Below are positions 51,417 through 58,660 of a stretch of DNA of 64,000 nt, one piece after another. Under the pieces are notes generated by a model, which saw only the letters and a list, made by a program, of their open reading frames with translations, made no database searches and was not told the origin of the DNA. The DNA lies in the NCBI GenBank assembly GCA_040767965.1, contig JAXGNR010000004.1:32001-96000 (forward strand). Direction: 5' to 3'. The translations under genes and the position numbers were made by a program. The stretch comes from Atribacterota bacterium (lineage in GTDB: Bacteria > Atribacterota > Phoenicimicrobiia > Phoenicimicrobiales > Stramentimicrobiaceae). The stretch's first letter is position 1. Each line of letters starts with the position of its first letter.

Positions 51417-52979
51417 ATGATGTCAAAAAGCATTTCTGTTTTAATAATTATACTTTTTCTTGTGGTGGCTGGTTTTGCTTATTTGAACTATAATCGTTTA
51501 AGCCTTGTACAAAAAGAATTATCTGTAAAAGACCAATTAATAGAAGACTCAAAGGAGCTAATCAGCAAACAGGATTTTGCTATTGACCAATTAGAAGAAA
51601 GGATTAAAAAAGTAATTGAAGAAATTATAACTGCTGAAAGCAGTTTAAGACAAGAAAAAGAAGAACTAAACCAGGAAAGAATTACCTCTCTGCAGGATGA
51701 AATTAACCAGTACACAGTTAACATTCAGGAAGTAATTAATAAAATTAACGAAATGGAAACCAGGCTAAGTGAAGAAATTAGTCTCCGAAAACAATTAGAG
51801 CAGGAAATAATAAAATATGAGAATAATATTGCTAGACTGCAGGAAGAATCAACCCAGGAACAGAATCTTGAAATTCTTGAACAGAAAATAGCACAATTGC
51901 AAAGCAATAAAACAAATCTCCAGGAAGAAGTTCAGCAGAAAGACCTTCTTTTAAATATCATCAATCTAGAGCAGAAGTCTTTACGGGAACAATTGGCTAA
52001 CTATGAACAGCTGTTGCATGATTTACAAGGAGAAATGATGGTAGTAGAGAAGCATAAAATAGAGATGGAAGAGCTTCAATCCAGTTTAATACAATTGAAA
52101 GAAGAAAAAAATAAGTTAGAAGTTGTTTTGCATGATAGAGAAGATCAATTGTTATCCAGGGAACAGCAAAACAGACAAACTATCGACAAGCTCCAATTTG
52201 AAGTTCAGGAATATGAAAAAAGCTTAAAAGAGTTAGGTAGTGAGATGTTGTCTATAAAGCAGAATATAAGTGAAGTGAAAGATGATGCTATTTTGGAATC
52301 ACAGATTTCCCAATTAAAGCAAAATATAAAAGAACTTGGGGATATTCTGGCAGAAAAAGAAATTGAATGGGAAGAACAAAATCAAAGTAACAAGGAATTG
52401 ATTGCTACATTAAAAGTTCAACTAGAAAAATATAAAGAAGATATCCAACTTGTGAAATTTGATAGCAATTTATATAAAGATGATATTGCTGCTGAAATTC
52501 AGCTGCAACAGGAACGAATTGCCAGCTTGAATGATAAAGAAGGGCAGATTGCCAAGCTGGTTACTGAAATCGAAGGTTATGCCAGAAAAATTGAAGATTA
52601 TGAAAATAATATTGCCCAGCTCAAAGAAAAATTAGATTTTCAGCAGGAGTTAAGTTATCAGGGACAGCAAAAAATGTTAGATGAAATTATTTCTTTAATA
52701 GAAGAAAGAGATACCAGTCAAAACAATATTGATTTATTCAAAAAACATATTAATGAACTGCAAGCAGAGGTAGCTGAGTTAAAAACAAGAATACAAGGAA
52801 TGGAAATAAAGGAATTCTCAAAATACTATGAAGTAAAAAGCGGAGACAACTTATGGGTTATTGCAAAGGAAAAATATGATGATGGGGTTGCATGGACAAA
52901 GATCTTCAGTGCAAATAAGGAGCTAATTAAAAATCCTGATTTGATATATCCTTATCAACAACTGATAATTCCAGAATAA
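51417..52979 (+). CDS. Membrane-anchored long coiled-coil protein with C-terminal LysM domain
   Basis: TM helix at residues ~5-23, about 440 aa of E/Q/K/L/I-rich heptads without Pro, then YEVKSGDNLWVIA...W..I..AN...IKNPDLIYP. Confidence 0.88.
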   Translation: MMSKSISVLIIILFLVVAGFAYLNYNRLSLVQKELSVKDQLIEDSKELISKQDFAIDQLEERIKKVIEEIITAESSLRQEKEELNQERITSLQDEINQYTVNIQEVINKINEMETRLSEEISLRKQLEQEIIKYENNIARLQEESTQEQNLEILEQKIAQLQSNKTNLQEEVQQKDLLLNIINLEQKSLREQLANYEQLLHDLQGEMMVVEKHKIEMEELQSSLIQLKEEKNKLEVVLHDREDQLLSREQQNRQTIDKLQFEVQEYEKSLKELGSEMLSIKQNISEVKDDAILESQISQLKQNIKELGDILAEKEIEWEEQNQSNKELIATLKVQLEKYKEDIQLVKFDSNLYKDDIAAEIQLQQERIASLNDKEGQIAKLVTEIEGYARKIEDYENNIAQLKEKLDFQQELSYQGQQKMLDEIISLIEERDTSQNNIDLFKKHINELQAEVAELKTRIQGMEIKEFSKYYEVKSGDNLWVIAKEKYDDGVAWTKIFSANKELIKNPDLIYPYQQLIIPE

Positions 52980-55804: not shown

Positions 55805-56611
55805 TTGCGGATCTTGTCTGTTGCTAATCAAAAAGGCGGAGTAGCAAAAACAACTACTACTATTAATTTAGGAACTTGTTTATGTGAATATGGGAAAAAA
55901 GTTCTTTTAATTGACATGGATCCACAGGCACATACCAGTATTGGTTTGGGGATTGAACCTGATGATTTGGATAAAACAATGTTAAATGTCCTGGAACCAA
56001 AACGATCTTCCAGTAAACTTGAATTAGATGATGTGGTTATACAGTTAAAAGAAATATGCAATGGCAATTTATATGTTGCTCCCAGTAGTATGGACTTTGC
56101 CAGTGCGGAGTATAAATTAATAGACCAGATAGGAAGAGAAGACTTTTTAAATATTAGTATCCAGAACAGTAAATATGATTTTGATTATGTTATAATTGAT
56201 TGTCCTCCTTCTTTGGGTATTTTAACAATCAATGCCTTAAAAGCCTCAAATGAGGTAATAATTCCTATTCAGCCTCACTTTTTTGCTTTACGTGGTGTTG
56301 AAGAATTTGTAGAAACCATTGAAGTTGTCCGTCATAATCTGCATCATCCATTAGAAATTTTTGCACTTATTACCATTGCTGATACTAGAAGTAATATATC
56401 TAAAGAAGCAATTGAAGAAATTAGGAGTTATTTTAAAGAAAGAGCTTTTAAGACCATAATAAGAAAAAATGTGACACTGGTAGAATCTTCCAGTGAAGGT
56501 ATGCCAGTTATTTATTATAATCCTAAATCTCATGGTGCTGAAGACTATTCAGAACTTGCCAAAGAGGTGATTTCCTTTGAAAAAGAAAAAATTAGCGCGC
56601 GGATTTACTAA
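55805..56611 (+). CDS. parA: Soj/ParA-family ATPase
   Basis: [12 protein letters not shown] (deviant Walker A), [16 protein letters not shown] and IRKN basic DNA-binding positions, [12 protein letters not shown]. No N-terminal HTH and no MinD-type membrane helix. TTG start with SD AGGGGG. Confidence 0.93.
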
Positions 56612-57971
56612 AATATTAGATTACAAACAAGAGCTTATCAGGGATACTTCTCAGGGGTTAGAGAAAGAGACAGAAGAGCCAACTGATCTGTTTGATGTAA
56701 ACGGTGAATTAATTAGCCAGGAAATTAAAAATGACCCACCTCCTGTAGAAGAACAGCAAATTGAAGAATTTGTGAATATTAAAGTGATTGGCATTGGTGG
56801 TAGCGGCAATAATGCTATCGAAGAAATGACCAATAACCCTATTAATGGCCTAAAGTTAATTGCACTCAATACCGATTTACAAGCATTGACTTTGTCTAGA
56901 GCCAGCCAGAAAATACAAATTGGGAAATTAACCACCCGTGGATTAGGTGCTGGGGGAGATCCTGAAGTAGGTAAAAAGGCTGCTGAAGAAGATAGAAACT
57001 CAATTTCTAAAGTATTAGAAGATGCTGATATAGTATTTATTACTGCAGGGATGGGAGGAGGCACCGGCAGCGGAGCTGCTCCTGTGGTAGCTGAAATTGC
57101 TAAAAGAGAAGGAGCCCTGACCATTGGTGTAGTAACTCGCCCATTTAGCTTTGAAGGCAAGAAACGGATAACACAAGCCGAACAAGGAATTGAAGCTCTT
57201 AAGAAACAGGTAGATGCTTTAATTACCATTTCTAATGATAGGCTATTAAATATGATCAGTAAAGATACTTCAGTGAAAGAAGCCTTTGAAATAACGGATA
57301 GAGTTTTAAGACAATCAGTACAGGCTATAGCAGACCTGATTACTATTCCGGGGTTGATTAATCTTGATCTGGCAGATGTTCGAGCAGTTATTAAAGATGC
57401 CGGATTAGCACTGGTTGGAATAGGTGTAGGCAGAGGCAATAATAAAGGAACAACTGCAGCTGAAGCAGCTATCTCAAGCCCGCTGTTAGAGGTATCTATT
57501 AAAGGATCCAATTCAATTCTGGTGAATGTTACCGGAGGTCTGGATATGAGCCTTTATGAAATTAATCAAATCGTTGATTTAGTATCTAAATCCGCTGGAA
57601 ATGAAGCTAATGTTGTTTTTGGCGCAATTATATCTGAAAAAATGCAGGATGAAATAAGAGTTACTGTAATTGCCACTAAATGTGAAAAGAATGAAAATGA
57701 TTCTCAAAATAATATTGAAACTGAAACAATCCAAGACAGAATTGAGAAAGAAGAGAATAGGGTTGATGAAAGAGATTTTATCAGTAATCGATACCAGGGG
57801 AATTTAAGAACAGAAAAGAACAACAGAAAAGATTCTCCTTTAGAAGAAGAAAAAGTACTGGAAAAAGAAATTCCCTTTAAGCTTGAGGATGAAGGTATTT
57901 CAAAGAAATATAAAAATGAAGAAGATTTAGATATACCAACTTTCATAAGAAATAGAAATAGAAGATATTAG
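56577..57971 (+). CDS. ftsZ: FtsZ (divergent, outside the dcw cluster) with a ~62-aa N-terminal extension starting with a ParB-like peptide
   Basis: [35 protein letters not shown]7 loop [10 protein letters not shown] and C-terminal core [18 protein letters not shown] is 7 nt before the TTG at 56577. Confidence 0.95.
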
Positions 57972-58024: not shown

Positions 58025-58660
58025 TTGATGGAGAAAAAGGAAAAACAACAGTTTTCATTTTCTACTTACGAAGCTTACAAAAAGATTAAAAAAGATGATC
58101 CGCTTAAATTAATTTATGATGCCATTGATTGGTCTGGTATTAATTCTATTCTTAAAGATGAAGATATTTCTTACAGCAAAAAAGATTTGCTATATACTCC
58201 TATTGCTCTTTTTAAAGCCCAATTCTTGCTTTACCTGGGGGAAGTAAAGTCTAATCGGGATTTAGCGGAAAAATTACGCTTTAATACTAAATACTGTTTA
58301 TTGTGTGGATTTAATAATTTTTTAAAAACGCCTGCTCATTCTACATTTTCTGCTTTTAGAAAAAAAATTGGAGAAAACGCATTTAATAAGGTAATGCAAA
58401 AAATAATAGCTCAAAGCGTCCCTTCTATAATAGAAAACAAGTATGATATTTCTGTAAAAAAACTCCATATCAGCATTTGTTCAAAGGACAACGAGCATAT
58501 AAAGTGCAACTGCAAAGGTAAATGCAAATTCAATATATCTTCAAAAGATCAGCAAAAAAATATCAGCAAGAAAAATTATGTTTTCATAAATAAAAAAATT
58601 AAATTATTTATAGATAAAAAAACCGGTAAGCCAATAGGGGCGGAAATAAAACCAAAATAA
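58025..58660 (+). CDS. Transposase-derived protein (IS5/IS1182-like DUF772 N-terminal domain, truncated, no DDE triad)
   Basis: DPLKLI..AIDW, Y.P..LFKA, S.RDL, LCGF and TPAHSTFSAFR match the DUF772 pattern. The ORF ends after a degenerate KK.Y.F..K..L..D..TG.PI strand pair. Confidence 0.75.
   Translation: MMEKKEKQQFSFSTYEAYKKIKKDDPLKLIYDAIDWSGINSILKDEDISYSKKDLLYTPIALFKAQFLLYLGEVKSNRDLAEKLRFNTKYCLLCGFNNFLKTPAHSTFSAFRKKIGENAFNKVMQKIIAQSVPSIIENKYDISVKKLHISICSKDNEHIKCNCKGKCKFNISSKDQQKNISKKNYVFINKKIKLFIDKKTGKPIGAEIKPK

Follow-up and report, generated by a model that had tools for sequence, protein, structure and literature searches.

We describe here a locus that pairs a ParA-type ATPase gene with a gene for the division protein FtsZ, found in a window of 64,000 nucleotides (nt) of an Atribacterota bacterium (contig C4, positions 32001-96000; assembly of 2.33 Mb, 98% complete). 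The first gene, parA2 (55805..56611, plus strand), encodes a Soj-type ParA ATPase of 268 amino acids (aa) from a TTG start and belongs to an Atribacterota-specific clade. The second, ftsZ2 (56577..57971, plus strand), also opens with TTG and encodes a further FtsZ, 464 aa long and extended at its N-terminus; both are numbered to tell them from the canonical parA1 and ftsZ1 located elsewhere in the genome. The two frames share a dual-coding stretch of 35 nt (56577..56611, plus strand), in which residues 257-268 of the ParA2 tail are read together with codons 1-12 of FtsZ2. Along the same strand, FtsZ2 consists of a conserved N-terminal peptide (codons 1-25; 56577..56651), a variable disordered linker without conservation (codons 26-66; 56652..56774), the GTPase core with the FtsZ_C domain (residues 67-368, 56775..57680; PF00091 at 67-227 and PF12327 at 276-368) and a C-terminal peptide that is conserved, DLDIPTFIR (residues 450-458; 57924..57950).

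The pair constitutes a two-gene module that is specific to the Atribacterota and found across the phylum. Its genes are translationally coupled and co-inherited, and the sole conserved feature that distinguishes FtsZ2 is a basic N-terminal peptide of 24 residues, tethered by some 40 disordered linker residues. A functional partnership between ParA2 and FtsZ2 is very likely, and the arrangement suggests that ParA2 positions FtsZ2 filaments directly.

An overlapping junction and a translated extension

The original prediction, made from the letters of this DNA, had described the 35-nt overlap, a Shine-Dalgarno sequence within the codons of the ParA motif LAKEV, and a TTG start 7 nt further on. 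The raw sequence bears this out: AGAGGTG (56563..56569, plus strand), read directly, is formed by the K-E-V codons of the LAKEV of ParA2, and a spacer of 7 nt separates it from the TTG. The same design recurs in a sample of 50 loci drawn from six families, 49 of which contain the FtsZ2 N-terminus, the other being cut by a contig end. At all 49 junctions (A/G)GAGGTGAT stands at the fixed distance of 7 nt from the ftsZ2 start, codon 1 is TTG, and an in-frame stop lies exactly two codons before it; in the window this stop is TGA, so that the ftsZ2 frame cannot begin earlier. Furthermore, the intact parA2 frame extends 11-56 nt into ftsZ2 in 48/50 loci, and the two outside this count are the one cut by the contig end and one with a decayed parA2. 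No plus-strand terminator was found between the two genes, and a promoter scan at the locus gave no excess over shuffled controls.

The codons tell which of the two products is under constraint. In the 46-sequence alignments from which all conservation counts for the peptide and for ParA2 are taken, fifteen residues of the extension are invariant (M1, K2, K4, L6, R8, G9, F10, D15, K17, E19, L20, I21, R22, D23 and T24, each 46/46), while their codons vary: six synonymous codons are used for R8, six for R22 and four for T24, and two to six for the invariant residues 15-24, which lie outside the overlap. Since the residues are invariant and the codons are not, the peptide is under purifying selection, including residues 13-24 beyond the overlap. 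The internal leucines L6 and L20 are written with three and five codons respectively, unlike the fixed TTG of the start. Moreover, the third base of the overlapping Phe/Leu codon of ParA2 is T in every locus, though C would be silent for ParA2, as would be expected from selection on the ftsZ2 start codon. Within the overlap, the FtsZ2 frame holds seven invariant and one near-invariant residues and the ParA2 frame one invariant and two near-invariant ones; judging from this pattern, the overlap is constrained by the FtsZ2 peptide and not by the ParA2 tail. Indeed, in one genome (G076, locus L092) a K-to-N change in FtsZ2 codon 3 creates a TAA that deletes the last eight parA2 codons and leaves ftsZ2 intact. 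We also considered whether the tail of ParA2 acts as a MinD-like membrane helix and rejected this: the tail is basic in families f3-f6, acidic or neutral in f2, unconserved, and removed by a stop in one genome.

It could be argued that the extension is an annotation artefact and that the true start is the GTG at codon 66, which would leave a spacer of 160 nt after parA2. Such a codon does exist just before the core (FVNIK), and many FtsZ proteins start thereabouts. Nevertheless, fifteen residues of the extension are invariant despite synonymous codon turnover, the TTG and its Shine-Dalgarno sequence are fixed in 49/49 loci, and the linker stays in frame while its length and sequence vary; both Atribacteria FtsZ genes are, in addition, expressed (Katayama 2020, PMC7736352). 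The GTG start was rejected on the fixed TTG and Shine-Dalgarno sequence and on the codon turnover under invariant residues, and the artefact is in our opinion vanishingly improbable. The extension is accordingly translated and conserved, as had been claimed for it.

A two-gene module of the Atribacterota

Among 86 genomes of the phylum, an FtsZ match was obtained in 84, and the FtsZ2 type, matching from query residue 1, occurs in families f1-f6, the window belonging to f1. According to the tallied coordinates, FtsZ2 is present in 71 genomes, ParA2 in 72 and both in 68. Wherever the two genes share a contig they are adjacent or overlapping (66/66 genomes), and in the remaining two genomes they lie at contig ends. 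The position of an FtsZ in the slot overlapping a ParA, first seen here, is therefore no oddity of a single locus, given 48/50 loci and 66/66 genomes. Partial FtsZ2 matches in two genomes (G054 and G013) were left out of the count, for which reason these appear to have ParA2 only. Two genomes of a seventh family (f7; 89% and 96% complete) have one FtsZ each, matching from query residue 61; FtsZ2 and ParA2 were not found in them, the matches there being of ParA1 level only.

ParA2 forms a sharply bounded group. Its orthologues in the genomes of the phylum are 59-100% identical, ParA1-type proteins reach at most 47%, and the sole intermediate is a decayed copy at 54%. In a collection of 5.8 billion proteins, among the best 120 of 6,887 matches, the clade is seen at 58% identity or more and is followed by ordinary Soj proteins at 48% or less; within the same 120, its named members are of Atribacterota type but for one partial match of 240 aa labelled 'marine sediment metagenome'. 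As a background control, we inspected the 80 FtsZ loci that came closest across all phyla. An open reading frame (ORF) resembling ParA lies directly upstream in two of them, both Atribacterota FtsZ2 loci, and in none of the remaining 78. In each of five actinobacterial metagenome-assembled genomes (MAGs) a single FtsZ was found. Atribacterota MAGs supply the nearest public loci.

FtsZ2 is a genuine FtsZ. It scores 412.3 bits against NCBIfam TIGR00065 (cut-off 295.2) and 166.6 and 105.1 bits against Tubulin and FtsZ_C, the only Pfam domains it matches; ParB_N and HTH_ParB were not among them. It is 52% identical to FtsZ1 and 53-59% to the FtsZ of other phyla. The GTP-binding signature G-G-G-T-G-[ST]-G at G160-G166 and the T7-loop residues N262, D264 and D267 of the N-x-D-x-x-D pattern are invariant in the 46-sequence alignment, P454, F456, L457 and R458 are nearly so, and the C-terminal peptide is present in every complete FtsZ2 listed. 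This peptide fits the consensus [DE]-[IV]-P-x-[FY]-L-[RK] of the conserved C-terminal peptide (bioRxiv 2023.08.29.555414), the copy in the window, D-I-P-T-F-I-R, having I where the consensus has L. Because signature, T7 loop and C-terminal peptide are all conserved, FtsZ2 should be able to polymerise and to bind FtsA-type partners; in other bacteria, this terminal peptide is bound by FtsA. The C-terminus had been proposed to reach FtsA or SepF; as SepF was not found in the genome, the case can be argued for FtsA alone.

In the AlphaFold2 (AF2) model, the core has block-mean confidence (pLDDT) values of about 64-96, and residues 1-53 remain under 50 with no secondary structure predicted. The linker varies in sequence, length and charge yet keeps its frame, being strongly acidic in f1, with Pro in the window copy, and Lys-, Pro- and Ser-rich in f3-f6; the acidic Pro-containing linker and the intact C-terminus reported for the window copy were recovered here (linker to about residue 66, end at DLDIPTFIR). 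FtsZ2 of f1, including that of the window, stops right after the C-terminal peptide, and that of f2 ends in ..KKTLF. In f3-f6 there follows an extra tail of about 25 residues with a conserved aromatic-basic ending of the FPFFRR.., LSFFRKQRRE and LGIFKRSRRE types. This tail, whose hydrophobic moment (muH) is only 0.32-0.57, might serve as another motif for docking or membrane binding.

Neither parB, ftsA nor ftsQ adjoins the pair among the ORFs of the window and their Pfam matches, in agreement with what had been noted from the sequence. The genes around it in the window are unrelated: one, encoded on the minus strand, is for an AMP-binding enzyme, and others are for an Exo_endo_phos nuclease and for polymerases of the Y-family and of DnaE type. 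Directly after ftsZ2 comes a DUF772 transposase-domain fragment of 211 aa (58025-58660), a place taken in f3 and f6 by a DUF4432 gene that begins 3-7 nt past ftsZ2; in these two families a radical-SAM/SPASM gene stands upstream of parA2. A third conserved gene that could serve as an adaptor was looked for and rejected, since the flanking genes differ by family and only the parA2-ftsZ2 pair is conserved. The search for parS gave a single match in the window, with three mismatches and 33 kb away, which is at chance level. At 51417-52979, 2.8 kb upstream and on the same strand as the pair, a 520-aa protein combines an N-terminal hydrophobic segment, a very long Glu/Lys/Gln-rich coiled-coil-like region and, at its C-terminus, a LysM domain; this protein may be a scaffold associated with the septum or with peptidoglycan.

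A canonical ftsZ in the dcw cluster and a separate parAB were expected elsewhere in the genome, and both are present. FtsZ1, of 379 aa, lies on the same contig about 140 kb away, behind ftsQ-ftsA in the order murF-mraY-ftsW-murG-murC-murB-ftsQ-ftsA-ftsZ1; FtsA and the POTRA domain of FtsQ are confirmed by domain match, and the designations mur, mraY and ftsW come from inspection of the translations by eye. The canonical parA-parB pair (ParA1/ParB) is found on contig C8 in an origin-proximal position, beside rsmG-mnmE-jag-yidC-rnpA (names read by eye), and its ParB_N and HTH_ParB domains are confirmed. ParA1 and ParA2 are the only partition-type ParAs of the genome, the rest being one Mrp/NUBPL protein and weak matches, and a single ParB exceeds the Pfam cut-off. 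In this 98%-complete genome, we found no MinC (MinC_C), no SepF and no MinD over the equivalog cut-off. One true FtsA is recognised by score, beside FtsZ1; three more PF14450 matches (FtsA-like, actin-fold) occur at C4:674650, C4:452078 and C5:261395.

The FtsZ2 peptide and the ParA2 ATPase

Partners of ParA/MinD ATPases act through a short, positively charged and disordered N-terminal peptide (PMC10241942; PMC13170346). FtsZ2 shows this layout: a basic start at K2-K5, a disordered tether, and a gene downstream of that of the ATPase. The likeness extends to the sequence. FtsZ2 proteins begin M-K-K-K-[KRS]-L-x-R-G-F-[ST]-x-x-[LIM]-D and the ParB proteins of the phylum M-x-[KR]-[KRG]-[GSA]-L-G-[KR]-G-[LI]-x-[SA]-[LI]-[IL]-P (47 loci, 26 distinct forms), and the two patterns coincide without gaps from Met1 at L6, the basic residue 8, G9 and the hydrophobic residues 10 and 14. 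In Myxococcus xanthus ParB, L11, L15, L18 and I19 serve for ParA binding and R13 for activation (PMC12462528); L6, R8, F10, I13 and L14 of FtsZ2 reproduce this i, i+2, i+4, i+7, i+8 spacing. L6, R8, F10 and [LIM]14 are kept in 46/46 sequences, and position 13 is I or V in 26/46. By BLOSUM score against the 26 distinct ParB N-termini, anchored at the start, the FtsZ2 peptide ranks 3rd among 2,302 first-start N-termini and 7th among 22,574 possible starts, about 4.2 standard deviations over the mean; rank 1 is ParB itself and rank 2 a CAAX protease, taken as chance.

Other observations weigh against a ParB-like handle. At position 13, 20/46 sequences have R, K or G instead of a hydrophobic residue, and the conserved part of the peptide reaches residue 24, its half D15-T24 having no counterpart in ParB. 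In the alignment of the peptide with ParB by hhalign, only columns 1-15 are matched, to columns 1-15, with P = 0.0071 and a probability of 5.4%, which is weak; a matrix built from the phylum ParB N-termini alone gives the FtsZ2 peptide -9.2 bits. On account of these last two results, the ParB likeness is not statistically secure. The comparison of residues 1-15 with ParB N-termini, which the original prediction had put forward, thus stands as regards spacing, register and arginine, with mixed statistics, and a motif of some ten residues is too short to show its further idea that FtsZ replaced the body of a ParB. The resemblance therefore lies in architecture rather than in demonstrated homology.

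Whatever its origin, the peptide belongs to FtsZ2 alone. In six-frame searches with regular expressions its motif occurs once in this genome. Region 1-40 of FtsZ2 gave 55 matches among 5.8 billion proteins, all of them FtsZ, and a profile of the extension gave two matches among 1.84 billion representatives, with no ParB among them. A degenerate DNA pattern of the invariant residues identified 56 stretches in GTDB representative genomes, 54 of them Atribacterota by name and two 'uncultured bacterium'. The peptide as a targeting signal shared among proteins was consequently rejected, being present on no other protein in the genome or in the protein-collection searches. One public FtsZ2 with an Atribacterota-type extension carries the label of an 'Arcobacteraceae bacterium' MAG, probably a binning error.

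A different function for the peptide has been proposed in print. Two FtsZ genes were described in Atribacteria, one of which has a predicted amphipathic extension and no FtsA of its own, and membrane binding was suggested for it (Katayama 2020, PMC7736352); the original prediction had named this reading as a competing explanation. FtsZ2 would then reach the membrane by an amphipathic helix, independently of FtsA, and ParA2 would act on it in some other way or serve another purpose; a possible target is the intracytoplasmic membrane that has been reported from Atribacter. The physical properties of the window copy speak for such a helix: its best 18-residue window (residues 5-22) has a muH of 0.61, in the top 1.7% of 1,330 N-termini and higher than the 0.51 of the genome's FtsA membrane helix, with a mean hydrophobicity of 0.30 and a charge of +3. 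Furthermore, the only true-scoring FtsA sits beside FtsZ1 and not FtsZ2. Yet the same window in f3 and f6 has a muH of 0.47 and a mean hydrophobicity of just 0.09, against 0.45 for the FtsA helix, and AF2 predicts no helix within residues 1-53.

Lipid-binding helices usually conserve their character, not their sequence. The invariant D15, K17, E19 and D23, together with an invariant Gly9 inside the putative helix, would be unusual for them; K17 falls in the apolar face. Invariant charged residues on the polar face (R8, D15, E19, R22 and D23) would be expected of a protein interface more than of a lipid-binding helix. The membrane helix also leaves the obligate overlap with parA2 unexplained, and according to a 2023 preprint a membrane role has never been demonstrated (bioRxiv 2023.08.29.555414). 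Amphipathicity itself does not discriminate between the two functions, because the peptides of ParB and MinE bind their ATPases as amphipathic helices (PMC13170346; PMC12462528). Altogether, we consider the membrane helix unlikely as the explanation of the peptide, though a ParA handle and membrane binding need not exclude each other.

The partner to which such a handle would attach is a ParA of the Soj type. ParA2 matches Pfam AAA_31 (E 2.4e-56, 190.9 bits), and its best solved relative is a ParA, PDB 8RAY (E 1.3e-55). K10, K15 and D39 of the deviant Walker A motif K-G-G-x-x-K-[ST] and motif 2 are conserved in 46/46 sequences, D37 is invariant, and 43/46 have the arginine that corresponds to the DNA-binding Arg of Soj. 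ParA2 is 45% identical to the ParA1 of its own genome and 47-48% to the Soj of other phyla. It scores 116.9 bits against NCBIfam ParA_partition NF041546, under the cut-off of 180, which says little since the canonical ParA1 (108.9 bits) misses it too; against the minD_bact equivalog it reaches 76.9 bits, far under the cut-off of 212.9.

Residues of the M. xanthus ParA were mapped onto ParA2 through the 8RAY alignment (chain index + 19, checked at the D60A site). In that protein, the central Arg/Lys of ParB docks at a site made of Y81, E82, D110 and E117, and the hydrophobic ParB-binding cleft comprises V116, L150, L152, L155, L187 and L192 (PMC12462528). The cleft is kept in ParA2, where Y103, L137, I139, I/V142, I/L/V174 and L179 are hydrophobic or aromatic in 46/46. 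The docking site is not, and this is a further point against a ParB-like handle: L60 replaces Y81, N61 replaces E82 and K/R104 replaces E117, each in 46/46, and D97 (equivalent to D110, 46/46) is the sole docking residue kept. With three of the four Arg-docking residues replaced, the binding mode of ParB cannot simply be transferred to ParA2. The same replacement would also be expected if ParA2 were shielded from ParB and adapted to a different peptide. The invariant Tyr103 (46/46; about 56111-56113) occupies the position of M. xanthus V116, beside the charge-reversed K/R104, and one may speculate that a cation-pi partner has moved rather than vanished. Co-folding of a ParA2 dimer with ATP, Mg and FtsZ2 residues 1-40 gave a score of 0.00 with no control runs, and speaks neither for nor against binding.

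A further possibility is that the peptide contacts some other target, be it ParA1/Soj, FtsZ1, the FtsZ2 core (as autoinhibition) or another factor, with ParA2 acting through its globular domain in the manner of MipZ. ParA1 does keep, at docking positions one, two and four, the Tyr and acidic residues (Tyr, Asp and Glu) replaced in ParA2, and no counterpart is known for the second half of the peptide. In addition, parA2 is damaged in one genome (G075, locus L090), with many small indels and 16 in-frame stops, where ftsZ2 and its peptide are intact, a finding that also weighs against ParA2 as the partner; this copy has either become a pseudogene recently or falls in a poorly assembled stretch. 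On the other side, the translational coupling to parA2 is conserved throughout the phylum, ParA2 keeps its hydrophobic cleft, and no positional tie links FtsZ2 to ParA1. Inhibitors of the MipZ type, moreover, are not known to need a peptide handle. A target other than ParA2 appears to us quite improbable. The damage to parA2 in G075 and in G076 falls in one genus, and ftsZ2 is intact in both.

A ParA2 gradient for FtsZ2 filaments and its known relatives

We return to the peptide as a handle for ParA2. From its gene content, the genome seems to offer no other candidate partner, ParA1 and ParA2 being the sole partition ParAs, with one ParB and without MinC, SepF or a true MinD among the proteins found. 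That the FtsZ2 peptide is the handle, and the activator, of ParA2 is the best supported of the mechanisms considered, though we regard it as evenly poised between right and wrong. If so, ATP-bound dimers of ParA2 would reside on the nucleoid, the peptide would fold as a short amphipathic helix, and its invariant R8 would trigger ATP hydrolysis through the remodelled docking site, whose remodelling would in turn insulate the pair from ParB-ParA1. As an FtsZ2 filament displays many peptides, it would behave as a multivalent cargo and activator, positioned by the ParA2 gradient relative to the nucleoid. The site of divisome formation would then be signalled by FtsZ2, either by way of the C-terminal peptide or through joint assembly with FtsZ1, in an organism devoid of Min. 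The whole scheme, in which FtsZ2 filaments are at once cargo and activator of a nucleoid-bound ParA2 gradient by means of a ParB-like handle and a rewired docking site, and in which the pair replaces Min, Noc, MipZ or Pom, is put forward tentatively, its chances being in our estimate somewhat short of even.

The placement of the division ring in bacteria without Min, Noc, MipZ or Pom is an open question. If the scheme were true, an FtsZ carrying its own ATPase handle would represent a minimal ParA-FtsZ system, a one-protein link between motor and cytoskeleton, and would provide a concrete and testable function for the second FtsZ of the Atribacterota. This phylum includes a cultivated member whose internal membrane is unusual, and a membrane around the nucleoid has been reported for the phylum. 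The rewired Arg-docking site of ParA2 also bears on how co-resident ParA systems are insulated from each other. A full-text search by whole words found no literature joining Atribacterota, FtsZ and ParA, and searches on parA-ftsZ pairs, orphan ParA or a second FtsZ found nothing relevant. The extended FtsZ is already known, and its ParA coupling, its ParB-like spacing and the rewired ParA2 site were not found in print.

To our knowledge, the ParA/MinD-based systems described so far all require one or more adaptors to connect the ATPase to FtsZ. The extended FtsZ of Atribacter laminatus RT761 is of the same protein family as FtsZ2 (Katayama 2020, PMC7736352); neither ParB nor ParA was found named in the main text of that work.

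A close architectural parallel is ParABS (Soj-Spo0J), in which the partner gene also lies directly downstream of parA and overlaps it, and the partner presents a basic N-terminal peptide with the same motif spacing on a disordered linker. The body of FtsZ2, however, has no ParB_N, HTH or CTPase, and no parS is near. Moreover, ParB has two glycines flanking its Arg/Lys where FtsZ2 has one, the conserved part of FtsZ2 is 10 residues longer, and ParA2 is without the Tyr and acidic docking site.

Among systems that govern division, MipZ-ParB of Caulobacter and MinCDE likewise use ATPases of the ParA/MinD family to set the site of FtsZ polymerisation (PMC13170346), but they act negatively, through the surface of the ATPase (MipZ) or through MinC, and their activators are ParB or MinE. 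In PomXYZ of Myxococcus xanthus, a nucleoid-bound ParA-like ATPase places the FtsZ ring positively, and PomX bears a short basic N-terminal peptide (PMC13170346). Two adaptors stand there between ATPase and FtsZ, whereas parA2-ftsZ2 has no conserved adjacent adaptor and FtsZ2 bears the peptide itself. Finally, in McdA-McdB and in orphan ParA-cargo pairs, the cargo, or an adaptor encoded next to it, engages the ATPase by a charged disordered N-terminus (PMC10241942); their cargo is a protein organelle or cluster, whereas in the Atribacterota it would be a dynamic cytoskeletal polymer.

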